DNA from: Promethearchaeota archaeon
Lineage (GTDB): Archaea > Asgardarchaeota > Lokiarchaeia > Sigyniarchaeales > SOKP01
Reading direction: 5' to 3'
Assembly: GCA_019058245.1 (NCBI GenBank)
Contig: JAHPZJ010000004.1
Location: forward strand, 1-41,059
DNA length: 41,059 bases
In this document: one piece after another, positions 5,822 through 22,854 of the stretch
Numbering within the stretch: the stretch's first letter is position 1
Layout of the letters: each line of letters begins with the position of its first letter
Notes under the pieces: generated by a model
Databases searched by the model: none
The model's input: the letters and a program-made list of their open reading frames with translations, nothing else
Told to the model about the DNA's origin: nothing
Program-made: the position numbers and the translations under genes

Positions 5822-8800
5822 CTAAGTACTTCCTCTTTTTTTCATAAAGATATACACAACACTTATCACCGCGACTCCTCCGACTATAGAGACAACAACA
5901 ATAATTATAATGACAGTTGGGTCTAATCCACCTTCTGGAATGCTTTTAATTACACTCACACCTTCAGATACTTCATGTCCCGCGAGATCTCTGACATAGA
6001 ATGTAATATTGACTTCACCCTTGGATAAAGCTGTCCAAGCCGTCTGGTCAAAAGTACCATTATTCACAACAGTATGATTGGTCAATCCGCCATCAAATGA
6101 ATACCATATTTTATCTAGATTTACCTCTATAACATTTATATTAAATGAGGGTGCAGTATTGCCAAATGTCTCTCCTTCAGTTGGTGCGTTGATAATAATA
6201 ATAGGTGCTACAGTGTCCTTAATGATACTAACTTCTGCAGTTCCTACATGTCCTAAATCATCAACAGCGTAGAACTTAAGTGTAATCACTCCATCCGTCA
6301 TGGCATCCCATTTTGTTTGATTGATAGTGCTATTTGTCGTGAAGGTGTAATTATTTAAACCACCATCAATCGTATACCACATTGATACTAAATAATCATC
6401 GTTGATTCTTACGTCAAAAGAGGGGGCTATATTGCTAAATACTTCTCCTGAAGAAGGGGAGTTAATATTAATAGTTGGAACTTCATTATCTTTTATTATA
6501 GCAACCTCATCAGAGTTGATATTCATTGGCTTATCACTAGCATAAAATGTTAATATGACACTGCCCTCAGGTGTGGCATCCCATGCATCTTGATTAATCG
6601 TCCCATTATCAGTAAATGTAAAGTTTATTGATCCCCCATCGATTGTATACCACATTTCATATAAATAAACATCATTTATTCTAACATTGAACGATGGTGC
6701 TACACTACCAAATATCTTACCGGATGTAGGTGAATTTATTGTTATAGTGGGTTGAACATCATCTATTATTGGTAAATGGTCTTGGATTAAGGGAGTAAGG
6801 CTAATATTATAGGGCTCAATTCCGATACCATCACCACGATCTGTGCCAGTATAATTATCCCAGTAATTCCCAATTATACTACTGTTCCATTTATTATCTA
6901 TTCCATCATCCATTGCATGTTTTCCATTCTGAAGAAAGAAATTTTGAAAGATAGAGTTGTTATTACTATTAGTTTCTAAATATATTCCATAAACGGTATT
7001 TTTTCTTAAAATATTTCCCATTATAGTATTATTAATCCCTTCTTCTACTTCTATTCCGTCGTAACTATTGTTGTATGCTAGATTCTCAACGATATTATTG
7101 AAATTACTATAATACAGGCTAATCCCACCACTATTATTATTAAGATTATTTTGTGAGATATTATTGTAATCACATTCATTTTCAAGAAAAATCCCATCAT
7201 TACAACTCTTTGCCGAATTTTCATTAATTTTATTATGGTCGCTGGCTGTTAAATAAATTCCTGCCCTATTATTATTACTTACGCTATTTTCGGTAAGATT
7301 GTTGTAATCACTATCCTCTAAATGAATACCATCATTATTATTTCCATCTGCAATATTTCCAGAGAGGGTATTGTTATAACAATAATTGCACAAAAATATC
7401 CCATCACTACTGTTATATACATAATTTCCTGAAATTGTAACATTTATACATTCTTCCAGATATATTCCATTTTCATCATTTCCTTGTGCAGTATTATCAA
7501 TGATGCTACTGACAGTACATATATTTATAGAAATCCCATGTTCATTATCATTTACTGTGTTTCCTGTAATATTGACATAGTTACTTTCGTATACATTAAT
7601 CGCATCATAAATATTATTATTTACAATATTTTCAAAAATAGTAATATTATTACTATATTCTGCATAAATCCCCCAATATAGATTAGAACAATTATTGCTG
7701 ATTATTTTAGAATTATTTACATTATCTAGAGAGATTCCATTTTCATTAGTATTGTAAATTTTACAGTTTCGTATAATAAAACTGACATTAGAATTTCTAA
7801 TATCAATAGGGTAAATATTTTCAATTTTGAAGGCACTTAGTGTAAGATTTTCAATAATAAAAGGATCTAAATCTGTTCCTGAACCAGAACACCAGGTCTG
7901 ACTTTTTGCCCATGTCCAATTATGTGCACCAACACCGGTGGCAGTACCATCAATAAATATTGGTTCTGTTACCGTATGAGGTGAACAATCGTTATATTCA
8001 ATAATATTACCTGTACTTAAAGTCTCATAAATACACCAATTATTACTTGTCAAATCATTTCCTGACACATTGTTGAAATCACTTTCCTGTAATCCTATTC
8101 CTAAATCATTTCTATTTATTGTATTATTTTTAATAACGTTATTATCACAACGACGTAGATATAACCCTATTGCTGTATTATCATTTGCAGTGTTTTTAGT
8201 AATATTACAAGAATCTGAATAGTCTAAATATATTCCATGTTTATTATTATTATTTACTGTGTTACCTGTGATATTACAATTATCGGAATAGGAGATATAT
8301 ATTCCATAGACGCCATTATTATTAACCGTATTATTGATAAGCCTTGTTTTATGAGAGTTAGTATGTATCCTTATACCAAAACTTTCAAGTGAGGCGTGAA
8401 AATTGAAATTACATTCATTGTCAATTAGAGTATTATTTTCACTATAATCACCCACGATAATCCCTATATTATTATAATTTGCGGTATTGTTTGCAATAGT
8501 ATTATTTTTACAACCAGAAAATGAGTCAGAAACCCATCCAAATAATCCTATACCCAAATTAGAATTACTGTTAGCAGTGTTATTCGCAATGGTATTATTA
8601 TAGCAATATCTATATAGGAATATTCCTCCTCGCCCCTTATTGTTTGAACAGTTATTTTCAATTAAAGTCCCATTATTTGTATTTTCTAATTTAATCCCCG
8701 CATTATAAGATGATGAACTGCCTGTCACATTATAAACAGAACAGTTTCTTATGATAAAATACACATTCTTGGAATTACTTATTATTATACCGCTTCCTGT

Positions 8801-9067
8801 TGGAGATTTTCCCGCATTAATAGTGACATTTTCAATAATATAAATTCCATTTACTTGCCTGCACCATGGTTTTAAGAGTGTATCTGACCAATTATTGAGA
8901 ATACTCCCATCGATATGAATAAAATCTTCAATATAACCTCCCGAGGTTTTTGGTTTAATTTTATTAGTCTTTTGCACATCATAGAAATTGCTGTAGTTAT
9001 TAATTATTAATGGAAAGATAAGTACTAAAATCAATAAGATTACTAATTTTTCTCTTTTAATTTTCAT
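5822..9067 (-). CDS. Cell-surface protein: two NosD/parallel beta-helix modules, three Ig-like repeats, C-terminal membrane anchor
   Basis: Hydrophobic N-terminus; many GIYL..S..N.I..N repeats; GNYWDNY motif; three PxIxINxP...WY(T/S)(I/F)DGG repeats; TM helix followed by KKR. Confidence 0.85.
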   Translation of the reverse strand: MKIKREKLVILLILVLIFPLIINNYSNFYDVQKTNKIKPKTSGGYIEDFIHIDGSILNNWSDTLLKPWCRQVNGIYIIENVTINAGKSPTGSGIIISNSKNVYFIIRNCSVYNVTGSSSSYNAGIKLENTNNGTLIENNCSNNKGRGGIFLYRYCYNNTIANNTANSNSNLGIGLFGWVSDSFSGCKNNTIANNTANYNNIGIIVGDYSENNTLIDNECNFNFHASLESFGIRIHTNSHKTRLINNTVNNNGVYGIYISYSDNCNITGNTVNNNNKHGIYLDYSDSCNITKNTANDNTAIGLYLRRCDNNVIKNNTINRNDLGIGLQESDFNNVSGNDLTSNNWCIYETLSTGNIIEYNDCSPHTVTEPIFIDGTATGVGAHNWTWAKSQTWCSGSGTDLDPFIIENLTLSAFKIENIYPIDIRNSNVSFIIRNCKIYNTNENGISLDNVNNSKIISNNCSNLYWGIYAEYSNNITIFENIVNNNIYDAINVYESNYVNITGNTVNDNEHGISINICTVSSIIDNTAQGNDENGIYLEECINVTISGNYVYNSSDGIFLCNYCYNNTLSGNIADGNNNDGIHLEDSDYNNLTENSVSNNNRAGIYLTASDHNKINENSAKSCNDGIFLENECDYNNISQNNLNNNSGGISLYYSNFNNIVENLAYNNSYDGIEVEEGINNTIMGNILRKNTVYGIYLETNSNNNSIFQNFFLQNGKHAMDDGIDNKWNSSIIGNYWDNYTGTDRGDGIGIEPYNISLTPLIQDHLPIIDDVQPTITINSPTSGKIFGSVAPSFNVRINDVYLYEMWYTIDGGSINFTFTDNGTINQDAWDATPEGSVILTFYASDKPMNINSDEVAIIKDNEVPTININSPSSGEVFSNIAPSFDVRINDDYLVSMWYTIDGGLNNYTFTTNSTINQTKWDAMTDGVITLKFYAVDDLGHVGTAEVSIIKDTVAPIIIINAPTEGETFGNTAPSFNINVIEVNLDKIWYSFDGGLTNHTVVNNGTFDQTAWTALSKGEVNITFYVRDLAGHEVSEGVSVIKSIPEGGLDPTVIIIIVVVSIVGGVAVISVVYIFMKKRGST

Positions 9068-9299
9068 TTTAATGTTATATTATGTATTTTTTTATAAATA
9101 AAGAGAATGAGAACCAAATATTTAATATTTTTGAAATATAGTTTTAATTTCTCTTTTTTTTATTGAATTTATCGATTTAATTCATCCTGAATAAAATATT
9201 TGTCAATTAATTCAAACTCCTAATTGAGGTAGACCGAAATAATTAAAAGGTTAATTTAAAAGAATAATCTTTAATACAAAGAATACTTAATTTGATTTA

Positions 9300-10586
9300 T
9301 TGAAATTCAAGAATTTAGTTTTACAGAGTCTATTAACTGGATTTATTATTATTTCCATTTTTAATCTAATAATAGGTGTATCATTTCAGAAAATTATTAA
9401 AAATAATGATTTCAATTTAAAAACTAATGGTTTAGATGAATCATGGAATATATCCACTGATTTTTATGGAGTGGATATGGTAGTTGATTCAAATAATTGC
9501 ATTTATATTTTGGCTTCTGAACATCTTAGATGCCTTTTTGGTTGTTATTATTATGGGGATGTAATAATTATGAAATATAACAACTCTGGAAATCAATTAT
9601 GGAAAATAAGTTTAGAAGGGTTAAGTATAGAAGATTCGGGGATTGCTATAGATTCAAAAACTAATCTATATTTAGCAAGTAAGTATGAAAATCAAACTTT
9701 GGAGGAAAATATGATTCTGTTAAAATACAACTCTTTAGGTAATCTACAATGGCAAAAAACATGGAGTGGAGGGGATAACGGGGATATAATTGATATTGCT
9801 ATTGACTCAGATGATAACATATATGTTTACGGAACTTCAGATTTTGTCGAAGAGTTTAATTTTCATTTATTCATAGTAAAATATAATAATTCTGGTGATC
9901 AACAATGGTTTCATGTATATGAAGAATTAGGAGAACATTGTGCGGGATGGGATATTGAGATTAACTCAAATGATAATATAATTGTTTCAGGTGCTACTTA
10001 TACTAATGAAAATAATTCGATAAACTATAGTTATTGGATAAGGTGTTATAATCAATCTGGTGAATTAAATTGGGAAACTTTTAATGAAAAAGGAGTTATT
10101 GAAACCTTAGCAATAACCTTAGCAATTGATTCCTTGGATGAAATAATTTCTGTAAATTCCACTAGTATAGCAAAATTTAATATCTCAGGGAATCTGTTAT
10201 GGGAATGGACTCATCAGATCGAATTCTGTTGGCAAATTCAAATAGATATCGACTCGATTAATAATATATATGTTGCTACAAGTATAGACATCCCAGATGA
10301 TCATTATACCAGTGATCTTTATCTTATAAAAATTAATGCCTCTGGTGATTTTGATTGGTATTTGACTTGGGGGGGTGCAGATAAAGATAATCTAAAATCT
10401 ATTAGCATTGATTCCTTAGATAATATCTTTTTATTATCTGATAATTATTTTATTAAGAATCCAAAAAATAATAATAAATCACTTACAAATATAAAACTAT
10501 TAAATTTTTATTTTGTTCTGTTAGTGATTTTATCTGCTTTTTCAGCAATTTCATTGTTTCTTGTTATAAAAGGAAAAATCCGTTAG
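9300..10586 (+). CDS. Membrane-anchored beta-propeller (SBBP-like repeat) protein
   Basis: Repeated IAIDSxxNIY...KYNxSGxxxW blades; N- and C-terminal hydrophobic helices; TTG start. Confidence 0.8.
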   Translation: MKFKNLVLQSLLTGFIIISIFNLIIGVSFQKIIKNNDFNLKTNGLDESWNISTDFYGVDMVVDSNNCIYILASEHLRCLFGCYYYGDVIIMKYNNSGNQLWKISLEGLSIEDSGIAIDSKTNLYLASKYENQTLEENMILLKYNSLGNLQWQKTWSGGDNGDIIDIAIDSDDNIYVYGTSDFVEEFNFHLFIVKYNNSGDQQWFHVYEELGEHCAGWDIEINSNDNIIVSGATYTNENNSINYSYWIRCYNQSGELNWETFNEKGVIETLAITLAIDSLDEIISVNSTSIAKFNISGNLLWEWTHQIEFCWQIQIDIDSINNIYVATSIDIPDDHYTSDLYLIKINASGDFDWYLTWGGADKDNLKSISIDSLDNIFLLSDNYFIKNPKNNNKSLTNIKLLNFYFVLLVILSAFSAISLFLVIKGKIR

Positions 10587-12240: not shown

Positions 12241-13665
12241 GTGTTACTTATAAATCCAGATTATCCTGACGTTTTTAAGCATGGTGCCCAAAAAAATGTA
12301 ATTCTTCCTCCATTGGGTTTAGAATATATTGCTGCAAATATTGAAGATATAGCTGAAGTCCTTATAATTGATAATAGACTAAAAACTATAAATTTAAAAA
12401 GCATTGAAACTACAATTTATCAATTTCAGCCTGATTACGTAGGGATTAGCTGCAATTATAGTCCACAAATCTATCATGCAGTTAAAATTGCTAATATTGC
12501 TAAAACTTATGGATCAACGACAGTGATTGGCGGTTGGCACCCTACACTTGTTCCTGAAGAGACTCTTGAATTTCAATCTGTTGATATCTTGATTAGATGT
12601 GAAGGAGAAATAACATTTCGGGAACTTATTCAAAATAATTCTCCTATCGATATCCCAGGATTATCATATAAAAAAAATGGAAAAATAATTCATAATCCTG
12701 ACCGAGAATTGCTAGATTTAAAACATATTAAATTACCTTCTCGACACTATCGTTCAAAAGAAGCAAAAGTAGAATACAGTTTCTATGGTTTTTCTATTGA
12801 TTGCATTGAGACTAGCCGAGGTTGTCCATATTCGTGTAATTTTTGTTGTATTCACGAATTTTATCGAAAGAGATACCGGACTCGTTCAATACCAAGTATT
12901 ATAAAAGAATTAAATTCAAATGAGGTTAAAAATCAGAGCCCATTTATTTTTATCATTGATGATAATTTTTTGGTAGATCCTAAATTTGTAGAAGAACTAT
13001 GTAATGCCATTATTCAGGAAGGTATTAGAAAATACTTTTCAACTCAAATTCGTGTTGATATGATTGTAAGGTACCCAAAAATTATTAAAAAGATGGCTGA
13101 TGCTGGTTTTATTTTCCTCTTTTTAGGAATTGAGAGTTTTTCTGATCGAACTTTGAAATTTCTTAATAAACAAACTGAATTCAAACAAATCAGATCAGCT
13201 TTAAAAATTCTTCATGATTATGGCTATTTTATTCAAGGAAACATTATTCTAGGGGCTAATTTTGAGGATAAAAAAGAGGATTTAGAATCTACGATCGAAA
13301 TTGCTAAGAAATTGGAAATCGATTTAACAACCTTTTCAGTATTAACTCCATTTCCAGGAACAAAATTGATGGAAAAAGTTTTAGAGGACAATCTTTTACT
13401 AAGCAACGATTGGAGTGAATTTAACTGGTCAGTACCAATTATTAAATATCCCCACTTATCAATAAAAGATTTGAAAGATTGCTTGAATAGAGCATTTTTT
13501 GAAGTCTCAAATTCGAAAAAACTTTGGCCTAGAATTAAAACTGTCGTTCTAAATCGAGGACTAAGATTTCATATTCTAAGAGTAGTAAATGTAGTTATGT
13601 TCAAAACAGTCTTTCAGAAGATCGAACACTCCCTGAAACAAAGATCTAAAAAAACAAATAAATAA
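12241..13665 (+). CDS. B12-binding radical SAM enzyme (class B methyltransferase-like); start may be CTG at 12235
   Basis: PPLGLEYIAA, GGWHPT, EGE cobalamin-domain motifs; ETSRGCPYSCNFC; DDNF; GIES; TPFPGT. Confidence 0.9.
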   Translation: MLLINPDYPDVFKHGAQKNVILPPLGLEYIAANIEDIAEVLIIDNRLKTINLKSIETTIYQFQPDYVGISCNYSPQIYHAVKIANIAKTYGSTTVIGGWHPTLVPEETLEFQSVDILIRCEGEITFRELIQNNSPIDIPGLSYKKNGKIIHNPDRELLDLKHIKLPSRHYRSKEAKVEYSFYGFSIDCIETSRGCPYSCNFCCIHEFYRKRYRTRSIPSIIKELNSNEVKNQSPFIFIIDDNFLVDPKFVEELCNAIIQEGIRKYFSTQIRVDMIVRYPKIIKKMADAGFIFLFLGIESFSDRTLKFLNKQTEFKQIRSALKILHDYGYFIQGNIILGANFEDKKEDLESTIEIAKKLEIDLTTFSVLTPFPGTKLMEKVLEDNLLLSNDWSEFNWSVPIIKYPHLSIKDLKDCLNRAFFEVSNSKKLWPRIKTVVLNRGLRFHILRVVNVVMFKTVFQKIEHSLKQRSKKTNK

Positions 13666-13739
13666 AATAGAAGATTTATTTCAAATCAGATTACAATCTG
13701 AGAGATAGTCTTATTCATTTTTGTATTTCTCTAAAAAAT

Positions 13740-15152
13740 TTATTTTTCTTCCAAAAGTCCATGCTTTTTGAGACCTTCTCTCATATCTGCTTGAAATGGT
13801 TCTGGTGTTCCTTCTATAAAGGCTTCAATCATATCTTGGTTTTGAATATTTGGTGAAGATCTTTTTTTTGCTTTCTCCTCCGCGAGAGAGGAAATGACCA
13901 TTTTTGCAATTTGTTGAAATTGAGGGGGTGATAATTTTATTAATTCATCAAAAATAATCTTAGTTTCGGTATCCCATAATAAACCATCTTTTTTTTCTTT
14001 CTTTGGTTTAGCCGTTTCTACTCCAAATTCACGGCTAGTTAATATATCATCAAGATAATCTTTTATAGACTCTACATAACTTGTAGATTCATCTTTATTT
14101 AATATAACCGCTTTCTTTGCCCATTCATTACAATAATTACACTCATCGCACGTTGAGATACAATCTTGTTTTTTAAAAAAATCTATAAATCCATCAAGTT
14201 TCGTATTATCAATTATTAATTTGGATTTATTCTCTTCAGTGACTGTTTTTGTGAATTTAATATTTGGATCTTTTTCCACTCCAATTGACATAGTAAATCC
14301 TTGAATAATATCAATAAGGTTTCCTTCATATTTTCTTGAAGAAAATGCTTTCACAGATCTAATAATCCAATCAGTGGACATCCGACGTCCAGCTATCTTA
14401 AAATCTGTGATTCCAATTTCTTCATAATGAGATAAATCTTCCGGACGAACCCACCTACATTTGAGGATCTCCGCAGGATTTGAAAATTTAATAATACTAC
14501 AATTTAATACACAAGTATCGATGTAATTTCTGTCGAATTGCTGATATGTTTGAGAAGAATGACCTAATATATTATAATGATAATGCCTGAAAGGACATTG
14601 ATATAAACAACCATCAGTTAATAGAAGGACAATTTTACATTTAACCGCTTTCTTAATATTTTTTAAAGTCTTGAAATCACGATTGATCATGACATCTGGA
14701 GTTATTTCATCAGCACCTAGCATTTCATAAAATTTCGCTCTATTTACACTATTAACGTGCGAAATAGTTGAAACTCGTATTTTTAGCTTTGGAAATTGTT
14801 CTTTTATAAGTTGTATTAAAAAAGGAATAGTTACTATTACACTATCAACACCAATATCAGTAATCCATTGAAGATAATTAAGCAACTCTTTGTGATAATG
14901 CGGATCATACTCCATATTATTCATACAAGGAGCATTTAACAGATAGGAAAACTTCATTTTATGTTCATGAACCCTTTTAATGTATTCTGCTATTTCTTCA
15001 TCAGATATATTTCGTAATAAAAATGAGGGTCGACCTCCTCCAACAATTGTATGATCTGCTACTCCATATAAATCAACGACAGGATATTTAGCTAATTCAT
15101 CAATCAAATCTGGATCCCAATTTGTTGCAACATAGAATTGAATCAAAATCAC
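13740..15152 (-). CDS. U32-family Fe-S protein (UbiU/UbiV/RlhA/TrhP-like hydroxylase superfamily) with C-terminal PCP_red/DUF2621-like domain; likely start TTG 15146
   Basis: YLLNAPC, GVDSVIV, ISTxxHV-like segment, GCLYQCPF, WVRPEDL, FKIAGR; extra CxxxCxxCxxC; C-terminal WDTETK...PPQFQ...AEEKA...TPEPFQ. Confidence 0.85.
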   Translation of the reverse strand: MILIQFYVATNWDPDLIDELAKYPVVDLYGVADHTIVGGGRPSFLLRNISDEEIAEYIKRVHEHKMKFSYLLNAPCMNNMEYDPHYHKELLNYLQWITDIGVDSVIVTIPFLIQLIKEQFPKLKIRVSTISHVNSVNRAKFYEMLGADEITPDVMINRDFKTLKNIKKAVKCKIVLLLTDGCLYQCPFRHYHYNILGHSSQTYQQFDRNYIDTCVLNCSIIKFSNPAEILKCRWVRPEDLSHYEEIGITDFKIAGRRMSTDWIIRSVKAFSSRKYEGNLIDIIQGFTMSIGVEKDPNIKFTKTVTEENKSKLIIDNTKLDGFIDFFKKQDCISTCDECNYCNEWAKKAVILNKDESTSYVESIKDYLDDILTSREFGVETAKPKKEKKDGLLWDTETKIIFDELIKLSPPQFQQIAKMVISSLAEEKAKKRSSPNIQNQDMIEAFIEGTPEPFQADMREGLKKHGLLEEK

Positions 15153-15271
15153 CTTAAGATATTTAGTTTATTTTTTATTTTTCTCTTTTCTCCATTAACT
15201 ATTTTTTCTTAACTCATAATTTTTTAAATGAATAAAAAATCCCTTATTAGTTCTTATTATACATTGTCTTT

Positions 15272-15673
15272 TTATTGTTGAATTGCTTTTTCATGAGCTT
15301 TTGCATTAAGTGGTAATAATGGTGCACATGCCATCAACTTACTTACATCACCATCCACAACATAAGTACCTGCCATAGTTGCTTGAATAGGATCAGATTC
15401 TCCAGAATTTACTTTTTTAATTGTATCGAAATCTGTTTTGTGGATGATTTTTGGAACATCAGGTCCTGAATAAATTCCTATTCCCCAATCCATCTTACCA
15501 TGATCAATAAACTGCCAATAACTCATCTCAGGTTTATCAGTTATTTCATATTGAAAGATTAAAGGTGCAATTGGGTCTAACATTGAGGCTAAATCTGGTA
15601 GTTCATTGTAGGCCTTCATAAAACGTTCAAGATATGCTTTCCATTCTTCTTTTGTGTCCAATTTTATTTTCAC
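15272..15673 (-). CDS. SCP2 sterol/lipid-carrier domain protein; likely start TTG 15661
   Basis: SGESDPIQATMAGTYVVDGDVSKLM matches the SCP2 C-terminal signature; AAGGAGGTGA Shine-Dalgarno upstream of the TTG. Confidence 0.8.
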   Translation of the reverse strand: MKIKLDTKEEWKAYLERFMKAYNELPDLASMLDPIAPLIFQYEITDKPEMSYWQFIDHGKMDWGIGIYSGPDVPKIIHKTDFDTIKKVNSGESDPIQATMAGTYVVDGDVSKLMACAPLLPLNAKAHEKAIQQ

Positions 15674-15733
15674 CTCCTTTATTTTTATTTTTTTGTGTCT
15701 TTGGAATTATTTTTCTTAAAGATTATTAAATTA

Positions 15734-16906
15734 TCACTTATAAGATTCAAGTCCTGCTTTACATCCCATTGCTAAGAAATCAACCATAGTTCCATTATAG
15801 TCGTTTTCAATTTTATAATAGAACCCCTTTTGAGAGAAAGTAGCTCCCCAGATAAATTTATGTGAATCACTCTGGAGTGGAGTTCTATCGACAAACTCTT
15901 TCATTAAAGGATGCAAATGTATAGGAATTTCTTTGGGATCATTACACGTTATTCCAAAACATAAACGTTCGACTTCTTTTGAATCCCAACTGAATGTATA
16001 ATTAAGATGAGCAGCCTTACGACATCCTTCCATCACTTCTTCAGATGCGGGCTTAAATCCTAATTCTGTTACCAATGCAATGCAACTATCATATGCGGAT
16101 TTAGCTGGCTGTTTGAGCATGAAATAAATGTTTGTTGTATTATGTAGAAAATCAAAAGCAAATAAACTAAAAGCTGTTAAACCGTGTCTATTAAAGTATT
16201 CTTTGTAATCTGCCATACTTTTTGGGATTGATATCATTGAAAATATTGGATCAATGGATCCAGGCACTGTAAAAGGCCAAATCTTCGATAAACCAGTGCT
16301 AGCATCTACATCAACACCATATCCCATGATTTCAAAAGTATTAAGTGATTCCATTATCATCTTATGAATTGGATGTCCACTTTTTTCAATTAAACCTTTA
16401 TTTACAGCGGTTGTATAAGGATCTGGATTGTGAGATATGAAAAATTCAACATATCTTACTGCTACATCTCTTTTTTCAACTGGTTTAGTAGTTGTTCTAA
16501 TTGATACTGGAGCACCTTTAAAAAATTTCTCAAATGTATTGAATGCTTTCCATATTGCTTTTTCATTACATTTTACACCCGTAATATCACAGAGAATCCC
16601 CATATCTTTAACCATTTGATTGAGATCTGTATTACACTTGAAATCAGAATTCACTTTGGATAGATATCTATCATAATCTACTCCAAGATTTTTTAGGTCT
16701 TCAATCATAGTAGGTTGAAAAGCGGGTGGAGTTACCTCAAACAACGCCACTACTAAATCTAATTCAGCTACTTCTTTTCCATTGCGCTCAATGCATTTTT
16801 TTTCTGCAGCTTCATGAAGAGCTGGTTCTACTGCGGGTCTCACCATTTCTGGTATTCCTAAGATAATTTTTTCAAAAAGTAGTTTAATTTCTGATTGCCA
16901 TTCCAT
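15734..16906 (-). CDS. PCP_red/DUF2621-like domain fused to ABBA-type (NphB/CloQ, PT-barrel) aromatic prenyltransferase
   Basis: RTTTK, DPYTTAVxxGL, YGVDVDASTGLSKIWPF, FDFLHNTTNIYF, TFSWDSKEVERLCF, YYKIENDY follow the NphB/CloQ motif order; soluble, with no DDxxD or UbiA membrane pattern. Confidence 0.85.
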   Translation of the reverse strand: MEWQSEIKLLFEKIILGIPEMVRPAVEPALHEAAEKKCIERNGKEVAELDLVVALFEVTPPAFQPTMIEDLKNLGVDYDRYLSKVNSDFKCNTDLNQMVKDMGILCDITGVKCNEKAIWKAFNTFEKFFKGAPVSIRTTTKPVEKRDVAVRYVEFFISHNPDPYTTAVNKGLIEKSGHPIHKMIMESLNTFEIMGYGVDVDASTGLSKIWPFTVPGSIDPIFSMISIPKSMADYKEYFNRHGLTAFSLFAFDFLHNTTNIYFMLKQPAKSAYDSCIALVTELGFKPASEEVMEGCRKAAHLNYTFSWDSKEVERLCFGITCNDPKEIPIHLHPLMKEFVDRTPLQSDSHKFIWGATFSQKGFYYKIENDYNGTMVDFLAMGCKAGLESYK

Positions 16907-16935
16907 TTTTTTTAACCTTTTATTTTCTTTTTTTT

Positions 16936-18336
16936 CTATTTTAGCAATTCAATTTCTTCCTTTTCAGCATCATAAATTTCATGTTCATGGTCATTTTCAT
17001 GCCAACAAAAAGGAAATGAACCAAAAAAATCTCCAGTTATATATTCTGCGGTAACGCGGCATCCCCCCCCACAATACTTAAGATGATGGCAAGAAGCACA
17101 TTTCCCCTTTATTTTTTTCCTGTCACGAATATCCTTATAAAGTTGGGAATTTAAGACATTTTCAAAATTATCCTTTAATGCATTTCCTAGTGTCAAGGTT
17201 GTAGGATATCCCGCAGGATATATTGTTCCATTAATCCCAATCCCCATCATTGTCCTACAAGCTAAACATCCCACACCCCATTCAATTGTCGCCATTTCCT
17301 TATCGTCTTTTGGTTGTTCCATAAAAGGCATCATATCATATATTTCATAAGCTGGTAAAGTACCTGCCTTACCTTTTCTTATTGTTTCAATCGCATGTTT
17401 ATATTTAAAATCATACATTTTTTTATATTCTTCTTTATTAAGTCCTATTTCGTCCCAGAATTCAGCAGCTCGATTTTGTTTAACCACACATCGAAAGTAT
17501 GGTTGTGAACCCCATTCTTCTGATAAATTTTTAAGCTGTTCTAGCTCATCAATATTTTGCTTCATAATTGTAATTGATGAACATACAAATATCCCATTTT
17601 TCAAACACAAATCGATCGCTTTCCTAGCATAATCTAACGAATTAGGAAAACCACGGATTTCATCGTTTTTCTTAGGATCTATGCTGTCAAAACTAACAAA
17701 TATATGACTTATATTGTTTTCCTTACACATTTTTGCAAATTTATCATCAAATTTTACACCATTGGTAATAAGGGCATGGATATAATCATTTTCTTTACAA
17801 AATTCCATAATTTCTCCAATATCTTTACGCAGAGTAGGCTCTCCACCAAACCAAACAAAACATGCATGTCTACCTTGATTTCTTAATCCAGTTTCTACGT
17901 TTTCTATTATTTTGAACCAATCATCTACAGATAACTCTGGTCTTGGTACCATATCATCAGCAGCGCAATGAATACATTTTTGATTACATTTATCTGTAAG
18001 ATACATAGCAAAATGGATATTTCCAGGATGAAATCCTCTTTCTATTTTCTCCCAAGAGATTTTAAGTCGATCCTTTATATCTCTAAGTTCTATATATCGT
18101 TCAACATCAATACCTAACTTCGTTAGATCTTCAATCATTACGGGTTTAAAAGCTTCTGGTATAATATCAAAAATACCCATTATAACATCAGCATCATTAA
18201 TATAAGCACCATTACGTTCAAGACATCTTTTTTCTGCAGCTTCAACTATTAATGGTTCTACAGAAGGTCTAAAACCCTGAGGCATCTGATCTCCTATTCT
18301 TCCGAATAAAACTTTTGTTTCTTTTTCCCATTCCAT
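16936..18336 (-). CDS. PCP_red/DUF2621-like domain plus radical SAM/SPASM enzyme (paralog B)
   Basis: CNQKCIHC, GGEP, SPASM cysteines GCLAC...CASCHHLKYCGGGCR...C. Confidence 0.9.
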   Translation of the reverse strand: MEWEKETKVLFGRIGDQMPQGFRPSVEPLIVEAAEKRCLERNGAYINDADVIMGIFDIIPEAFKPVMIEDLTKLGIDVERYIELRDIKDRLKISWEKIERGFHPGNIHFAMYLTDKCNQKCIHCAADDMVPRPELSVDDWFKIIENVETGLRNQGRHACFVWFGGEPTLRKDIGEIMEFCKENDYIHALITNGVKFDDKFAKMCKENNISHIFVSFDSIDPKKNDEIRGFPNSLDYARKAIDLCLKNGIFVCSSITIMKQNIDELEQLKNLSEEWGSQPYFRCVVKQNRAAEFWDEIGLNKEEYKKMYDFKYKHAIETIRKGKAGTLPAYEIYDMMPFMEQPKDDKEMATIEWGVGCLACRTMMGIGINGTIYPAGYPTTLTLGNALKDNFENVLNSQLYKDIRDRKKIKGKCASCHHLKYCGGGCRVTAEYITGDFFGSFPFCWHENDHEHEIYDAEKEEIELLK

Positions 18337-18348
18337 TATTTTTCGCCT

Positions 18349-19716
18349 TTAAGCACAATTCTCATGTTCATGATCATCATCATGCCAACAGAAAGGAAGT
18401 GAAGCTAAAAAATCACCCGTTACATTCTCCGCATGCACCCTGCAACCCCCACCACACATATCAAGGTGGTGACAAGTTGAACACTTACCTTTTATTTTTC
18501 GATCTCTAATTTTTTTGAACATTTCAGTTTCCATAATTTCATTCCAACTCTGCTCAAGAATATTACCTAAGATTAAATCAGAGGGATAATCACAAGGGAA
18601 TACATCCCCATTAGTATCAATCCCGGAAATTGAGCGACAGGCTTGACATCCTGTGCCCCATTCGATCGCAGTCCTTTCTTCATCATTTATAGGACACTCC
18701 ATGAATGGTACCATATCCCATGTATAGAATTTATTGAGCGATGATCCTTCTCCTTTTCTGATAGCTTCTATAGTATTTTTATATTTAAAATCATAGAATT
18801 GTCGATATTCTTCCATGCTTAAGCCGATTTCGTCCCAATTTAAATCCGCTGAACGTTGTTTAATTAGGGGTCTATAAAAGGGTGTTACACCCCTAGAATT
18901 AAAATATTCCCTTAACTTATCTAATTCATCGAAATTCTCTTTTTGAGCAGTTACATTAGCAATGGTAAAAATCCCATATTTTGCAGCTAAATCTAATGCT
19001 TTTTCCGCCGCTTCGTATGGTTTTGGATGCCCTCTAATTTTTGCAGCACGTTTGGGATCCGTACTATCATAACTAATAAAAATATGGCTCATCTTAACAT
19101 CTGCGCATATTTTTGCCAGTTCTTCAGTAAACAAAATTCCATTAGTTGCAAGTGCTTGATAATAGCCCTTTTCACCACAATATTTTATTAGATCTTTAAG
19201 ATCTTTACGAATAGTAGGTTCTCCTCCAAACCATATATAACATCCTCGTCGCCCGCGTTTTCGTAAACTTTGTTCAAGATCCTCAATAATTTCAATCCAA
19301 GTTTCCATGGGAAATTCTGGACGTTTCTCCATTACCGAAGCAGCACAATGGAGACAATTTTGATTGCATCGATCCGTCAGATATATAGTAAAATGATAGA
19401 CACCGGGTAAGAAAGCTCCACTAATTTCATTCCATGTACGAGCGTATTGTTTTCTAATTTCTGATAATTTTATATATCTGTCCGTATCGATCCCTATTGT
19501 CTCCAAATCCTTGACAACTGTGGGTTGAAATGCTTCTGGTGTTATCTCAAATAATGCAGAAAGCAAATCATCCCTACTTACAAATCCAGAATTCCTAAGC
19601 TGTGCTGTTTTTTCAGCAGCCTCACGTAACATAGGTTTAACAGATGGGCGAAACGCTTCAGGGGTTAAATTCGTTATTTTTATATACAAATCTTCAATTT
19701 CTCTTTTCCATTCCAT
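18349..19716 (-). CDS. PCP_red/DUF2621-like domain plus radical SAM/SPASM enzyme (paralog A)
   Basis: CNQNCLHC, GGEP, GCQAC...GDVFPC...CSTCHHLDMCGGGCR...C. Start set at MEW (19716) by analogy with the two neighbouring genes that also begin MEW. Confidence 0.9.
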   Translation of the reverse strand: MEWKREIEDLYIKITNLTPEAFRPSVKPMLREAAEKTAQLRNSGFVSRDDLLSALFEITPEAFQPTVVKDLETIGIDTDRYIKLSEIRKQYARTWNEISGAFLPGVYHFTIYLTDRCNQNCLHCAASVMEKRPEFPMETWIEIIEDLEQSLRKRGRRGCYIWFGGEPTIRKDLKDLIKYCGEKGYYQALATNGILFTEELAKICADVKMSHIFISYDSTDPKRAAKIRGHPKPYEAAEKALDLAAKYGIFTIANVTAQKENFDELDKLREYFNSRGVTPFYRPLIKQRSADLNWDEIGLSMEEYRQFYDFKYKNTIEAIRKGEGSSLNKFYTWDMVPFMECPINDEERTAIEWGTGCQACRSISGIDTNGDVFPCDYPSDLILGNILEQSWNEIMETEMFKKIRDRKIKGKCSTCHHLDMCGGGCRVHAENVTGDFLASLPFCWHDDDHEHENCA

Positions 19717-19815
19717 TATATTCACTTCATATAAATTTCAAAATACTTTTTGTATGTTTAAATTTAAACTTTAAATTATTAATTTTCAAAAAATTATAGG
19801 AGAAAGTTATCATTT

Positions 19816-20523
19816 TTATCCCTCCAGTTGAAAAGGTTTAGTAAAATATTCAATATTAGTTTGAGGATAAAGATATTGATTGATAGAAATACTATCGAAT
19901 TTTTTAATATAAAATATATAAAAAAATTGTAGAAAGTATGAATATTGCAATAATTTAAACAAAGATTGAAATATTGCTATATTATTAATATCAACAACAT
20001 AATTTCCTTTTTCTTTCAAGAAGTAGTATTTGTTCTTGCAATTATTTGTTAGACTTTCATTTTCTTCAAATTTAATAGATAAAATTAATACATTAGAGGG
20101 AACTATTGGTTCATCTCCTAATCCAAAAAGTATGATTGAACCTTGATATAAATTATAGATCTGATTTTTAGAATCAAAATCAAATGATTCTTGAAAATCT
20201 TCCTCTAAACAAACCTTTATATAATATTGATAAGCAATTCTATCAACTAACACACTTATATTTGTGATAATTATACTATCAATCAAAAATCCAGAACTGA
20301 TTTGGATAAATTGAAATTTATTAGGTAAAAACCAAAAAATATTATTAAAAGATAAGAAAGGAAGGAAAATTGAATTTCCTAATGCTATATAATCTTTTGC
20401 AATAGAAATAAAGAAATCAATCTCTCCTAAAAACGAAAAAATTAGAGTAATTGGGATACTCACAAAAATAATGATTAAAATTAATATAAATTTCGTAATA
20501 TTTTGTATTTGAGTGGAACGCAT
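19816..20523 (-). CDS. Hypothetical membrane-associated protein
   Basis: 235-codon ORF in very AT-rich DNA; hydrophobic N-terminal half; no motif recognised. Confidence 0.45.
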   Translation of the reverse strand: MRSTQIQNITKFILILIIIFVSIPITLIFSFLGEIDFFISIAKDYIALGNSIFLPFLSFNNIFWFLPNKFQFIQISSGFLIDSIIITNISVLVDRIAYQYYIKVCLEEDFQESFDFDSKNQIYNLYQGSIILFGLGDEPIVPSNVLILSIKFEENESLTNNCKNKYYFLKEKGNYVVDINNIAIFQSLFKLLQYSYFLQFFYIFYIKKFDSISINQYLYPQTNIEYFTKPFQLEG

Positions 20524-20691
20524 ATTTAATTATAATTGATTAATTTTAAGCTGAATATATAAATTCTCTAAAAACTTCCCATAATGTTGTATTTTTAATA
20601 ATAAAATTCATTTACATTTAAAAATTTCGAATTAGTCTAAAAAATTAATTAGACTGATATGTATTGGTAAAATATTGGAATATTGATCTTC

Positions 20692-22185
20692 TCAATCAGA
20701 AAGATTAGACCCTGTAGTTAAAGAAGTGAGTATCGTACTTAAAAATAATAACATATTTGCATTACGAATTGACATTTTGGAAAAATTACTTGTTTCATAA
20801 TTTATAGCATTGTAGAAAAATGATATTTTAGTTCTTTTAAAAAATTCAGAAATTTGGGGAAATGAATTTAAAGTTAATTTTAAACCAAATTTCTCAGGAG
20901 ACTCATGAGCAGGGGATCCCGGAAAAACATGATAAGGTTCATTCATTATAGTTATGGGTTTGGAACTCGATTTCCCATATTTTAATTGACACTTTAAGGC
21001 AAAAATGAAATCTTTTTGAATATCTAAATGAGTTTGGAAAGGAAAACCGACAGTTAGCCAAATTCTTAAAGTTCTTCGGTATAAATTTGCATTCTTTATT
21101 AAATCATTTATTTGCTTTTTAGGAAAATTAAAAGTTGGATCACAGAGTTTCGCTATTTTCTGATGTACTCTACTTGACATTGTTCTAGGAGATATACTGA
21201 GTGATGAATATCTACGAGGAAATGTTTTATAGAACGCATTCCACATATCTTTAGGAAATGGTAATCTCCATATCTCTAAGTCTCCCCCAATGTCAAAATC
21301 TTCTTTCTGAATTAATCCAAATAATCTTTTCCAATATTTTAATGTGGCTGGATAAGTACCATGTCCAAAAAAAATACTTGGTATCTTAAAATTATTGCTA
21401 ATACTACTAATATCATCAATTATTTTCTCTGGTTTTCTAAGGATAACATTTTCTCGACCTGATAAAATCTTTTGTGCCCTTTGGCCTCCTCCACAATAGG
21501 GACAATTAAAAGGGCATCCTCTTCCAATAGGAAGATTAAATGAGATTCCCATCATTTGTCTACTGGATTCAAAATATTGTTTTGCATTTTCTAAAAGTGA
21601 AAAATTAGTAAAATTCAAATTATCTAAAGTCTTTGCGGTATATGTGAGAGAATTAATTTTAATGTGCTTTGAAGAATCTCTATAAGATAAATTAGGAACA
21701 TTCTCTAAAGATTGATTCTTTTTGATACATTGAACATATTTTAGAAGTGGAATCTCTCCTTCCCCTCTGATTATTGCATCGATATCTTCATAGTATTTCA
21801 GTATTTGATAATGATAATACGATGCGCTATATCCTCCAAGAACCACTTTACTATTAGGATTTGCTTTTTTTACAATTTTAGCAACTTCAATTGCACCATG
21901 AGCATTATGAATCCAATGTAAATCTAATCCACACACTTTAAAATCAATATTTTTAAGAAAATTTGTTAATTTCCAGTTACGATTTAGATATTGCTCTAAC
22001 GGATAATTTAATATTTTAACTCCAAAGCCTTCTTTCTCAAGTAAATCTGCAATTGCAAAAACACCCATCGGTAAAAAAAGGAATGTCCCTCGTATGAATT
22101 TGGCATTTTTACGATAATCTGGACGTAATACTCTTGGTGGATGAATTAAAAGTAAGTCGTATTTTTTCAAGTAAAATACCATCAA
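20692..22185 (-). CDS. B12-binding radical SAM enzyme (divergent subfamily)
   Basis: LIHPP, PMGVFAIA, LDLHW, LGGYSA, RGEGE; GRGCPFNCPYCGG; FPGSP. Confidence 0.85.
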   Translation of the reverse strand: MMVFYLKKYDLLLIHPPRVLRPDYRKNAKFIRGTFLFLPMGVFAIADLLEKEGFGVKILNYPLEQYLNRNWKLTNFLKNIDFKVCGLDLHWIHNAHGAIEVAKIVKKANPNSKVVLGGYSASYYHYQILKYYEDIDAIIRGEGEIPLLKYVQCIKKNQSLENVPNLSYRDSSKHIKINSLTYTAKTLDNLNFTNFSLLENAKQYFESSRQMMGISFNLPIGRGCPFNCPYCGGGQRAQKILSGRENVILRKPEKIIDDISSISNNFKIPSIFFGHGTYPATLKYWKRLFGLIQKEDFDIGGDLEIWRLPFPKDMWNAFYKTFPRRYSSLSISPRTMSSRVHQKIAKLCDPTFNFPKKQINDLIKNANLYRRTLRIWLTVGFPFQTHLDIQKDFIFALKCQLKYGKSSSKPITIMNEPYHVFPGSPAHESPEKFGLKLTLNSFPQISEFFKRTKISFFYNAINYETSNFSKMSIRNANMLLFLSTILTSLTTGSNLSD

Positions 22186-22300
22186 ATATGATTAAAAATT
22201 GGTTCTTAATACAATCTTAAAATTAATTAACTATTTATTGAATAATTAGTATTTGGATTAATACTTTAATTAAATTATTCCTGATAATATTTTTTTTTAA

Positions 22301-22831
22301 TTACACTTTAATTTCGACTTCTTTAGAACTCTGTATAATTGTTTGATTTATTCCTCTTAAATAATCAGAAACTTGACCTATGTGATATAATTTATTCTTA
22401 ATTAAAATAAAAATAAAAATTAATAGACCGGTGCTTTCAGTAATCATTACTAGTGGATTTGTCCATAGTTGTTGTATCCAAAATAATAAGGGTTCTTCAA
22501 CAAATTGAAAATTATAAGAAATAAAAGGGTAGAATAAAGGTACATAAGGTAAATCTAAAATTAAATGGAAAATAAGACCTATAAGAAGGGGAAATGAAAT
22601 ACTTTTATTCCTTTTTGAAGAAAAATGAACAATTAAAAAACAGATAATTACAAATAATAAGTTATGAGAAATAAATCTCCCGTTTCCAAATCCTAAAAGA
22701 AATAATGGTTTATCTATGATATCTGAAAGTAGTGATCCGAGTAATAGTGCATACTTATTTATTTTTAATTTCTTTATTTGTGGGATTTCAGTAAATAGTA
22801 AAGGCAGAGCAGCATGAAATATTGGATATAT
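22301..22831 (-). CDS. Membrane-bound metal-dependent hydrolase (YdjM-like), 176 aa, ATA start; absent from the ORF track
   Basis: Open frame of 177 codons including the stop, read by hand: (M)YPIFHAALP...GSLLSDIIDKP...GRFISHNL...FHLILD. In-frame TAA immediately 5' of the ATA; GAGGT 7 nt upstream. Confidence 0.8.
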   Translation of the reverse strand: MYPIFHAALPLLFTEIPQIKKLKINKYALLLGSLLSDIIDKPLFLLGFGNGRFISHNLLFVIICFLIVHFSSKRNKSISFPLLIGLIFHLILDLPYVPLFYPFISYNFQFVEEPLLFWIQQLWTNPLVMITESTGLLIFIFILIKNKLYHIGQVSDYLRGINQTIIQSSKEVEIKV

Positions 22832-22854
22832 TTAAATTACCTCTTGGTTTTTGT

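Follow-up and report, generated by a model that had tools for sequence, protein, structure and literature searches.

Oxygen-independent hydroxylation in the ubiquinone synthesis of Proteobacteria involves UbiT, an SCP2 protein, together with UbiU and UbiV, which are U32-family 4Fe-4S proteins (PMC6747719), and the oxygen donor of the UbiU/UbiV-dependent steps is prephenate (PMC10990095). Archaeal lipids are modified by radical SAM enzymes (Tes, Gms) and B12-radical SAM enzymes (Grs, Cgm/Pgm, Ted), of which Ted has homologs in Asgard archaea (bioRxiv 10.1101/2025.10.20.683597). A further set of radical SAM enzymes, AhbC, AhbD and NirJ of alternative haem and haem d1 synthesis, acts on the carboxyalkyl side chains of a small molecule, not on peptides. 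To our knowledge, all characterised ABBA (PT-barrel) enzymes prenylate an aromatic acceptor, and a function is known for just three U32 subfamilies. After CloQ, one of these ABBA enzymes, the O2-dependent CloR carries out two oxidative decarboxylations.

Here we describe a gene block from a Loki-type Asgard archaeon that carries SCP2, U32, ABBA and radical SAM genes and is itself undescribed; a literature search found no paper describing the cluster, in agreement with a preliminary description of this DNA, whose author knew of no pathway with such a gene set. The reading we prefer, and to which we give an even chance, is an oxygen-independent biosynthetic cluster whose enzymes make or tailor a prenylated aromatic lipid, i.e., a meroterpenoid or quinol-like compound.

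An ORF check of the window (the whole 41,059-nucleotide stretch that was analysed) found seven of the seven genes named in the preliminary description to be intact in their reported positions, and Pfam searches upheld their family assignments. That description had overlooked an eighth conserved gene, for a membrane protein (19816-20523, minus strand; between the gene for radical SAM/SPASM enzyme B, hereafter rSAM-B, and the upstream B12 gene), as well as a domain of ~85 residues common to four of the cluster enzymes. The core therefore comprises a small membrane protein, two radical SAM/SPASM enzymes, an ABBA prenyltransferase, an SCP2 protein and a U32 protein, with intergenic gaps of 119, 60, 29 and 12 bp along the co-oriented run from U32 to rSAM-B. 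Its gene order is repeated in about 20 independent loci, so that the co-occurrence in relatives for which a neighbourhood comparison had been proposed is borne out. The region 12241-22185 is one presence/absence unit between an S8 protease gene and an ERCC4 gene, which adjoin each other in two congeners (G177 and G049) where the whole block is missing. The recurring order and the absence of the block as a unit indicate a grouping beyond chance, and the conserved order, the common domain and gene fusions in relatives uphold the earlier view that these genes form one group.

The common domain is a PCP_red/DUF2621-type tag carried, as shown by alignment, by the prenyltransferase, both SPASM enzymes and the U32 protein, and an HMM search of the genome found it in those four proteins only (E 1e-35 to 1e-45). 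All four copies give weak Pfam matches; the copy at the U32 C-terminus (13743-13997, minus strand), recognised by alignment, HMM and Pfam DUF2621, had an E-value of 8e-35 in the own-genome search and 29.7 bits against DUF2621 when scanned alone. Among 56 database-wide representatives, the tag is chiefly joined to PTase_Orf2 (13), U32 (11) and radical SAM/SPASM (5) domains, also to SCP2, and in single cases to a class I methyltransferase, an HpaB-type domain, a PNPOx-like flavoprotein, a 2Fe-2S ferredoxin and LuxC. The tag probably brings its four carrier enzymes together, either as a single complex or on a shared partner, a role for which the upstream small membrane protein is one candidate.

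This membrane protein, P0004 (19816-20523, minus strand; 235 aa), has no family match in Pfam, NCBIfam or Atlas, and in each of 19 loci its gene lies immediately upstream of rSAM-B. The N-terminal ~105 residues are conserved and contain hydrophobic helices, the middle is variable, and a loosely conserved Q-x-E-G-like motif stands near the C-terminus in about 12 of the 19 loci. Such a gene, directly 5' of rSAM-B, is in the usual position of a peptide precursor, and the tag could accordingly be imagined to recruit the enzymes to one ribosomal precursor, possibly the P0004 tail, for SPASM cross-linking followed by prenylation, hydroxylation and methylation, giving a lipopeptide or a PQQ- or mycofactocin-like cofactor. 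We see only a slight chance of this. Radical SAM/SPASM pairs with N-terminal extensions of ~100 residues are typical of peptide maturases, the NCBIfam matches include MftC, PqqE and other maturases, and one small domain on unrelated enzymes resembles leader-recognition domains; however, the modelled tag has the all-helical PCP_red/DUF2621 fold rather than a PqqD-like winged helix, P0004-type proteins have 200-260 residues, hydrophobic helices and a loose end motif that is sometimes non-terminal, and a search for a conserved small ORF gave none. Nor does the S8 protease belong to the cluster, since it is retained in congeners that lack it. SCP2 fusions to U32 and SPASM enzymes likewise speak against a peptide, as does the resemblance of the prenyltransferase to enzymes acting on small molecules.

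The prenyltransferase, P0001 (15734-16906, minus strand), consists of an N-terminal tag (about 16631-16906) and a barrel (15773-16627), and is the sole PTase_Orf2 gene product of the genome. It covers positions 2-283 of the 287 in the PTase_Orf2 profile (183 bits) and matches small-molecule ABBA enzymes along the entire barrel (AmbP1, 1.7e-36; 5ynt, 1.9e-35; AmbP3, 2.8e-35; 4ee6, 2.9e-30; 1zb6, 1.9e-27; CloQ, 5e-12), so the PT-barrel assignment holds both by HMM and against solved structures. Its 13 PDB matches with E<=0.01 include no cyanobactin peptide prenyltransferase. The closest prenyltransferases of solved structure use indole alkaloids, phenazines and naphthalenes as substrates, so several classes of acceptor would be conceivable.

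The proposal that this barrel replaces UbiA/MenA fared unevenly. In this 76%-complete genome MqnA/D were not found and the two UbiA-family genes resemble DGGGP synthase and the DPPR-synthase type, which suits it, but other holders of the cluster have 4-6 UbiA-family genes, which weakens it. Aromatic-precursor, prenyl diphosphate synthase and O-methyltransferase genes are all missing from the cluster in the window, and as no gene supplies the acceptor, quinone chemistry is purely inferred. The genome does encode chorismate synthase and chorismate mutase, and prephenate can therefore be made.

The U32 protein, P0002 (13740-15152, minus strand), is a divergent TIM-barrel Fe-S protein, with a Pfam Peptidase_U32 match of 51 bits over residues 88-151. 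Its fold is borne out by an AF2 model (pLDDT 81) for which Foldseek ranks the U32 protein Mk0906 first (5d88; E 4e-11, against about 1e-5 for the generic TIM barrels that follow), and 5d88 is also matched by sequence (E 3.7e-8). C76, C182, C186 and C218 are invariant, C214 is present in 45 of 46 sequences, and a second invariant cluster reads C331-x3-C335-x2-C338-x2-C341. In a tree, the cluster U32s form their own clade on a long stem (support 97/99), outside UbiU/UbiV, TrhP and the RlhA N-domain. The earlier likening to UbiU/UbiV is consequently weakened, P0002 being no nearer to these than to any other U32; the separate clade and a score of 17 bits against the NCBIfam UbiU cut-off of 440 rule it out as a UbiU/UbiV ortholog. 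It may be an O2-independent hydroxylase.

That P0002 is instead an RNA hydroxylase of the RlhA/TrhP kind, in a neighbourhood grouped by chance or regulation, we find scarcely credible. TrhP is its best E. coli match (46 bits over 127 residues), yet the NCBIfam TrhP score of 30 bits is far under the cut-off of 534, and the protein sits outside both families in the tree, which removes an objection that had been raised beforehand. Two canonical U32 genes lie elsewhere in the genome (257 and 262 bits), and the tag in common with other enzymes, the SCP2 fusions in relatives and the gene order kept in about 20 loci tell against a chance neighbourhood.

The SCP2 lipid-binding protein, P0003 (15272-15673, minus strand), has a Pfam score of 23 bits (cut-off 21.3) that is backed by an Atlas look-alike search (0.94; 28 of 30 hits, 203 shared features), and shares 79% identity with the SCP2 domain at the C-terminus of long U32 proteins in three loci (L001, L025, L027). 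Relatives carry fusions of U32, tag and SCP2 (the long U32), of radical SAM/SPASM and SCP2, and of tag and SCP2; those with the long U32 and SPASM enzymes favour a lipid-like substrate, in line with the lipid-handling role first proposed for SCP2.

Both SPASM enzymes bear N-terminal tags: rSAM-A (P0005; 16936-18336, minus strand; Radical_SAM 82 bits, SPASM 30 bits) at 18052-18336, and rSAM-B (P0006; 18349-19716, minus strand; 83 and 42 bits) at 19432-19716, the likely start of the latter being the ATG at 19716 within a full ORF of 18349-19725. Their radical SAM motifs are C117-x3-C121-x2-C124, with seven C-terminal Cys, and C120-x3-C124-x2-C127, respectively. The best NCBIfam matches of rSAM-A are AhbD, NirJ1/2 and AhbC, and those of rSAM-B, also below cut-off, are AhbD/AhbC/NirJ-like.

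Two class B radical SAM genes flank the core, and their membership had been considered less certain. This caution was justified for P0008 (20692-22185, minus strand; Ta0216-like; Pfam B12-binding and Radical_SAM; TIGR04190 265.6 bits, cut-off 500), which in most loci is encoded 5' of P0004 but has orthologs of 75% and 70% in two congeners without the core (G008 and G279); it often adjoins the cluster, yet is separable. P0007 (12241-13665, plus strand; B12-binding 64 bits, Radical_SAM 76 bits), whose gene is convergent with that of the U32 protein, does co-vary with the core: orthologs of 60-93% identity adjoin the cluster in L021, L027, L028 and L033, while the best match in five congeners without the core is 35-44%. 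It is probably a cluster member and probably a C-methylase or other radical tailoring enzyme, with BchE, HpnR and HpnJ as best NCBIfam matches, all far under cut-off.

The radical SAM/SPASM and B12-radical SAM enzymes could alternatively belong to archaeal membrane-lipid tailoring, in which they would cross-link, methylate, desaturate or hydroxylate the isoprenoid tails of archaeol or GDGT, SCP2 would lift the lipid from the membrane, and the prenyltransferase and U32 protein would add an unusual head or side group. The described lipid modifiers and the Asgard Ted homologs are compatible with this, as are the lipid-like substrate suggested by the SCP2 fusions, a LuxC acyl-CoA reductase fused to tag and radical SAM/SPASM in one relative, and P0008 standing alone in genomes without the core; moreover, among solved structures rSAM-A is closest in sequence to the GDGT/macrocyclic archaeol synthase 7tol (E 3.9e-11, radical SAM core only). 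However, the NCBIfam Tes score is 57 bits (cut-off 450) and the top matches are tetrapyrrole side-chain enzymes, the cluster has no glycerol-ether lipid gene, and its barrel is complete, of a type that, as far as we know, prenylates aromatics. On balance we consider lipid tailoring rather unlikely.

The distribution bears on the product. Its occurrence is patchy: the cluster was found in 26 of the 301 genomes sampled from the phylum and, within its own genus, in 2 of 22 other species. One of these two congener clusters lacks the prenyltransferase and rSAM-A with the remaining genes kept, such that either the prenyltransferase is dispensable there or that cluster is decaying. This is an optional cluster of Lokiarchaeia, a status easier to reconcile with a speciality product than with a core electron carrier; the new membrane electron carrier first suggested is weakened, and a speciality product is more probable than a respiratory quinone.

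For a prenylated aromatic lipid, the soluble prenyltransferase would join a prenyl diphosphate to an aromatic acceptor, probably shikimate-derived, and the SCP2 pocket would hold the greasy intermediate, as UbiT/UbiJ do with ubiquinone intermediates. The U32 Fe-S protein may then add oxygen without O2, with prephenate as likely donor, the SPASM pair may perform radical side-chain chemistry, e.g., oxidative decarboxylation or C-C bond formation, and the B12-radical SAM enzyme(s) may methylate unactivated carbons. More speculatively, the two AhbD-like enzymes could be an oxygen-free counterpart of CloR.

Compared with known systems, the locus resembles UbiT/UbiU/UbiV in that an SCP2 gene adjoins a U32 Fe-S gene in a pathway that includes a prenyltransferase (PMC6747719), in an anaerobic host with prephenate-making genes, and the pairing of the long U32 with a second, weakly U32-like protein in relatives recalls the UbiU-UbiV heterodimer. 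It differs in its archaeal host and optional occurrence, in a soluble ABBA rather than UbiA-type prenyltransferase, in having added radical SAM enzymes but no UbiE/UbiG/UbiD/UbiX partners, and in a single U32 in the window with an extra 4-Cys cluster, a tag domain and the spacing C-x3-C-x27-C-x3-C instead of the family's usual C-x6-C-x15-C-x3/4-C (PMC6747719). P0001 matches the full PT-barrel of NphB/CloQ/AmbP-type enzymes (5yk9, 5y4g, 4ee6, 1zb6, 2xlq) at about 30% identity, with aligned barrel-lining basic and Tyr residues; whereas these belong to bacterial secondary metabolism, P0001 is archaeal, has anaerobic radical and Fe-S enzymes in place of oxygenases as its neighbours, and is N-terminally tagged (C-terminally in distant relatives). 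With class B and SPASM-type enzymes for greasy isoprenoids in anaerobic archaea, the ether-lipid modifiers are similar in kind, but orthology is not demonstrated and their description mentions no ABBA prenyltransferase, SCP2 or U32 (bioRxiv 10.1101/2025.10.20.683597). Of the curated families, AhbC/AhbD/NirJ score best with rSAM-A and rSAM-B (115-140 bits), but the two enzymes fall far under the cut-offs of 500-650, carry the extra N-terminal tag and have no tetrapyrrole genes nearby. The tag model itself superposes on stand-alone DUF2621 (TM 0.82 by query, 0.92 by target; rmsd 1.1 Å over 83 residues) and, over 63 residues, on the PCP_red domain of subunit Z of chlorophyllide reductase (TM 0.60). 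Elsewhere PCP_red (PF08369) and DUF2621 (PF11084) are small helical domains, such as the C-terminal domain of BchB/BchZ or stand-alone bacterial proteins of 85 residues, whereas in this one cluster four enzymes, from three unrelated families, have such a domain added.

The block at 12241-22185 contains eight ORFs, all intact, in an AT-rich window (26-33% G+C), contig C4 of a 76% complete genome of 3.09 Mb. Pfam/NCBIfam searches assigned a B12-binding radical SAM enzyme on the plus strand (P0007, 12241-13665) and, on the minus strand, a U32-family protein (13740-15152), an SCP2 protein (15272-15673), a PTase_Orf2 ABBA prenyltransferase (15734-16906), radical SAM/SPASM enzymes A (16936-18336) and B (18349-19725) and a second B12-binding radical SAM enzyme (P0008, 20692-22185). 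The remaining ORF, also on the minus strand (19816-20523), encodes a 235-residue orphan membrane protein (P0004) of no family. The preliminary description of these genes, made from the sequence alone, holds because its weaker assignments (SCP2 and U32) and the prenyltransferase passed further checks, including structure matches for U32 and the prenyltransferase, but it overlooked the membrane-protein gene and a domain common to four of the proteins.

The prenyltransferase scored 183 bits against PTase_Orf2 (PF11468; cut-off 22) over profile positions 2-283 of 287, i.e., the whole barrel. AmbP1 matched residues 94-376 (E 1.7e-36), and whole-barrel alignments were obtained with AmbP1, AmbP3, 5ynt, 4ee6, 1zb6 and CloQ. 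Both the HMM and the matches to solved structures therefore confirm the PT-barrel assignment, and prenyl transfer to an aromatic acceptor is the function predicted for this ABBA enzyme from its sequence.

The U32 protein exceeded the Peptidase_U32 cut-off (PF01136; 51 bits, cut-off 22.4) over profile positions 2-65 only. It matched Mk0906 (5d88) by sequence (3.7e-8), and the same structure was the top Foldseek match to its AF2 model (E 4.4e-11, TM 0.71 by target). Its barrel has three invariant cysteines (C182, C186 and C218) and a fourth, C214, found in 45 of 46 orthologs, giving a spacing of C-x3-C-x27-C-x3-C, in contrast to C-x6-C-x15-C-x3/4-C, the four-Cys 4Fe-4S motif usual in most U32 families (PMC6747719). 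A second invariant set, C331/C335/C338/C341 (C-x3-C-x2-C-x2-C), precedes the common domain. Scores against curated families were low, at 17.4 bits for NCBIfam UbiU (cut-off 440) and 30 bits for NCBIfam TrhP (cut-off 534), and BLASTP gave 29.6 bits to E. coli UbiU and no match to E. coli UbiV. In a tree that included E. coli UbiU, UbiV, TrhP and RlhA together with the two canonical U32 proteins of the genome, the short U32 proteins of the cluster and the long ones found in related loci formed a clade to themselves (97/99) with a long stem, separate from TrhP and the RlhA N-domain. A grouping with RlhA or TrhP, named in the preliminary description as evidence against its proposed pathway, was thus absent, and an RNA hydroxylase that merely happens to lie in an unrelated neighbourhood appears very improbable. 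The tree equally gave no grouping with UbiU or UbiV, and the protein is not orthologous to either.

Characterised U32 proteins have been tied to O2-independent hydroxylation, with prephenate as the oxygen donor in the UbiU/V-dependent steps of ubiquinone synthesis (PMC10990095). The genome encodes chorismate synthase and chorismate mutase, and a hydroxylase role for the cluster U32 protein is suggested by family-level analogy. The co-oriented SCP2 gene precedes the U32 gene by 119 bp; its assignment is backed by an Atlas look-alike search (0.94), and sequence similarity to E. coli UbiT was undetectable.

Both SPASM enzymes carry a C-x3-C-x2-C motif and a C-terminal cysteine-rich SPASM domain, and scored 115-140 bits against the curated AhbD, AhbC and NirJ families, below the cut-offs of 500-650. 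P0007 and P0008 each combine an N-terminal B12-binding domain with a radical SAM domain; neither reached an NCBIfam equivalog cut-off, P0008 scoring 265.6 against TIGR04190 (cut-off 500). Doubt had been expressed over whether these two flanking genes belong to the cluster, and it is justified for one of them. Orthologs of P0007 (60-93% identity) occurred only beside clusters, the best match in five genomes without the cluster being 35-44% identical, whereas orthologs of the Ta0216-like P0008 (75% and 70%) were also present in congeners without the core. In one such congener (G008:C90, locus L015, 9576-11935) the Ta0216-like gene adjoins ERCC4 on the side opposite the S8 protease, and may be either a cluster remnant or an independent gene.

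The domain common to the four proteins, hereafter the tag, is N-terminal (~90 residues) in the prenyltransferase and both SPASM enzymes and C-terminal (~85 residues) in the U32 protein, and alignment showed these copies to be homologous. A tag HMM run against all ORFs of the genome matched these four proteins only (E 1e-35 to 1e-45), and the confident AF2 model of the tag (pLDDT 89.7) is a five-helix bundle. An Atlas fold search likened the tag to stand-alone 85-residue DUF2621 proteins (TM 0.82/0.92) and placed it with the PCP_red domain of chlorophyllide reductase subunit Z. Pfam agrees, if weakly, with a DUF2621 match on each of the four copies (29.7 bits for the U32 tag scanned alone, cut-off 27.7; 13-19 bits for the other three). 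By sequence and fold match the tag therefore belongs to the PCP_red/DUF2621 domain superfamily. Foldseek of the tag model against the PDB gave no match at E<=0.001, and the VIA-align scores against the PDB, Z up to 8.5 for AAA+ lid domains and 5.5 for PCP_red (2kru), are in the noise range of helical bundles, so that of the fold searches only that of Atlas was clear. A domain repeated on several enzymes could also be explained if the cluster made a peptide-derived product, the tag serving for recognition and the membrane protein's tail being a possible substrate. Of the hallmarks of RiPP maturation systems, no small conserved ORF was found as precursor, and the tag is all-helical and not a PqqD-like winged helix, though the orphan membrane protein may itself be a substrate; we consider this reading quite unlikely.

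In libraries of 5.8 and 1.8 billion proteins, the main carriers of the tag were PTase_Orf2, U32 and radical SAM/SPASM proteins. Doubled tags occur, some prenyltransferases have the tag at their opposite end, and fusions to SCP2 were found repeatedly. Fusion partners seen once each were a class I methyltransferase, an HpaB-type domain, a PNPOx-like protein, a 2Fe-2S ferredoxin and LuxC, the last in a 949-residue protein (P0373) whose single chain comprises a LuxC acyl-CoA reductase, the tag and a radical SAM/SPASM enzyme; a LuxE gene also lies close to the cluster in one locus (L009, 16109-17368). Two tandem prenyltransferases with the same N-terminal tag (L041:8647-11158) adjoin a ceramidase gene and lack radical SAM, U32 and SCP2 partners, on a contig of 52% G+C with sigma-54 activators which is presumably bacterial. 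STAND proteins with TPR_10/TPR_12 repeats were rejected as relatives of the tag, since these long proteins gave 5-10 weak stretches each, as expected of repeat cross-hits.

Gene order was tabulated over 22 distinct loci, and the neighbourhood comparison proposed in the preliminary description revealed a recurring core: membrane protein, rSAM/SPASM-B, rSAM/SPASM-A, an in-line B12-radical SAM enzyme, prenyltransferase, SCP2 and U32. The in-line B12-radical SAM gene between rSAM/SPASM-A and the prenyltransferase is usual in the other loci and missing in the window; P0007 was rejected as this gene relocated across U32, as the in-line genes are only 22-27% identical to it. The membrane protein had no match in Pfam, NCBIfam or Atlas. 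Its N-terminal third is conserved, its middle is fast-evolving and of low complexity, and about 12 of 19 loci have a Q-x-E-G-like motif near the C-terminal end, a conservation pattern that fits a tethered short linear motif.

Many loci contain an extra module in which a 383-residue, weakly U32-like protein is followed by a long U32 of 670-690 residues (L001:11203-14428, with equivalents in L006, L009, L025-L029 and L035); it is absent from the window, and the two proteins may represent a UbiU/UbiV-like pair. The long U32 has the architecture U32, tag and SCP2, its SCP2 part being 79% identical to the free SCP2 of the window, and SPASM-SCP2 fusions are also present among relatives. Through such fusions SCP2, U32 and the SPASM enzymes are all connected with a single lipid-like substrate.

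The whole block is missing from two congeners (G177 and G049), in which the S8 protease and ERCC4 genes are adjacent. The block at 12241-22185 thus behaves as one presence/absence unit in these genomes, and the S8 protease, being kept next to ERCC4 where the block is missing, lies outside the cluster. The 669-bp gap at 22186-22854 holds only short ORFs, none conserved. Elsewhere in the window, both on the minus strand, are two further proteins. One (26709-29168), of 819 residues, has a SIR2-like domain and then many TPR repeats and recalls NAD-depleting defence/signalling proteins; the other (5822-9067), of 1081 residues, is a NosD/right-handed beta-helix protein that also has an Ig-like domain, only partly conserved in congeners and probably a surface protein.

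The phylum was sampled on the basis of GTDB, and the tag, used to score presence, was found in 26 of 301 genomes. These included 22 of the 68 genomes of the window's family and two from other families of the same class, and there was one weak match elsewhere; all strong matches in this sample fell within the window's own class. Among the 22 other species of the genus, most with genomes 84-100% complete, only two had the tag. Submitters' names of the holders (Heimdall-, Thor-, Odin-, Hod- and Hermodarchaeota) clash with GTDB, which places nearly all of them in the window's family, including the genome of a 461,344-bp contig labelled Heimdallarchaeota (G204:C28); the Asgard-wide conservation that such labels (Thor-, Odin-, Hod-, Heimdallarchaeota) would imply is not borne out by the GTDB-based sample. 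One congeneric holder with a 100% complete genome (G207) has kept rSAM-B, SCP2, U32 and both B12 genes, and has lost rSAM-A and the prenyltransferase, with no tagged prenyltransferase found elsewhere in the genome. At its locus (L021, G207:C13:289000-308900, ~8673-10546) rSAM/SPASM-B (95% identical) leads directly to SCP2, a clean loss of the two genes. Where the cluster is kept, conservation of its proteins is strong (62-99% identity for U32 and 50-93% for the prenyltransferase), and the picture that these comparisons suggest is of an optional cluster, under selection where present and often lost.

The reading with the best support, to which we give roughly even chances, is that the cluster tailors a prenylated aromatic lipid without oxygen. 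The ABBA enzyme would prenylate an aromatic acceptor, SCP2 would carry the greasy intermediate, U32 would hydroxylate it, the AhbD/NirJ-like SPASM enzymes would perform radical side-chain chemistry, the class B enzyme or enzymes would methylate, and the tag would bring the enzymes together. Tailoring of archaeal ether lipids is an alternative consistent with the many modifiers of such lipids that are radical SAM enzymes, although we regard it as rather unlikely. A more specific form of the prenylated-aromatic proposal is that the product is a new kind of lipid-soluble redox cofactor, quinol-like and made without oxygen, with a soluble PT-barrel instead of UbiA/MenA, a novel U32 clade as putative hydroxylase, radical SAM enzymes instead of oxygenases, and the PCP_red/DUF2621-type tag possibly keeping the enzymes as a metabolon. 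If true, some Lokiarchaeia would own a membrane electron carrier that is invisible to genome annotation. A true respiratory carrier nevertheless seems unlikely to us, because the cluster is optional and decaying in close relatives.

MqnA/D were not found in the 76% complete genome. Two UbiA-family genes were, with best matches to DGGGP synthase, the gene for which adjoins GGGP synthase, and to decaprenyl-phosphate phosphoribosyltransferase (DPPR synthase); there is also one UbiD-family gene. Five nearly complete holders likewise lack MqnA/D and have 4-6 UbiA-family genes, so a membrane prenyltransferase for a quinone may be present there. The cluster probably does not encode a classical quinone pathway.

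Among known organisms, Asgard archaea stand closest to eukaryotes, and most of what is said of their membranes and redox chemistry has been deduced from genomes. With seven or eight genes, the cluster is compact, conserved and amenable to testing. It brings together a U32 protein from a new clade, putatively an oxygen-free hydroxylase, with an SCP2 lipid chaperone, an aromatic prenyltransferase of the soluble type and radical SAM enzymes. Close relatives with and without it exist, which makes comparative lipidomics feasible. Finding the product would give a function within the mostly uncharacterised U32 family and a first role, as a common tag, for the PCP_red/DUF2621 domain, and might uncover a new way of making a prenylated aromatic lipid anaerobically.

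No account of the gene set turned up in searches of the literature on aromatic/ABBA prenyltransferases in Asgard and other archaea, on U32 with SCP2, or on Lokiarchaeal quinone biosynthesis. Compared with the UbiU/UbiV/UbiT system, its U32 protein is not a UbiU/UbiV ortholog and neither a UbiA-type prenyltransferase nor UbiE/UbiG methyltransferases are encoded within it; the two are alike in having an SCP2 gene beside U32, and we see the cluster as a variation on the O2-independent tailoring logic of the Ubi kind, assembled from other enzyme clades.
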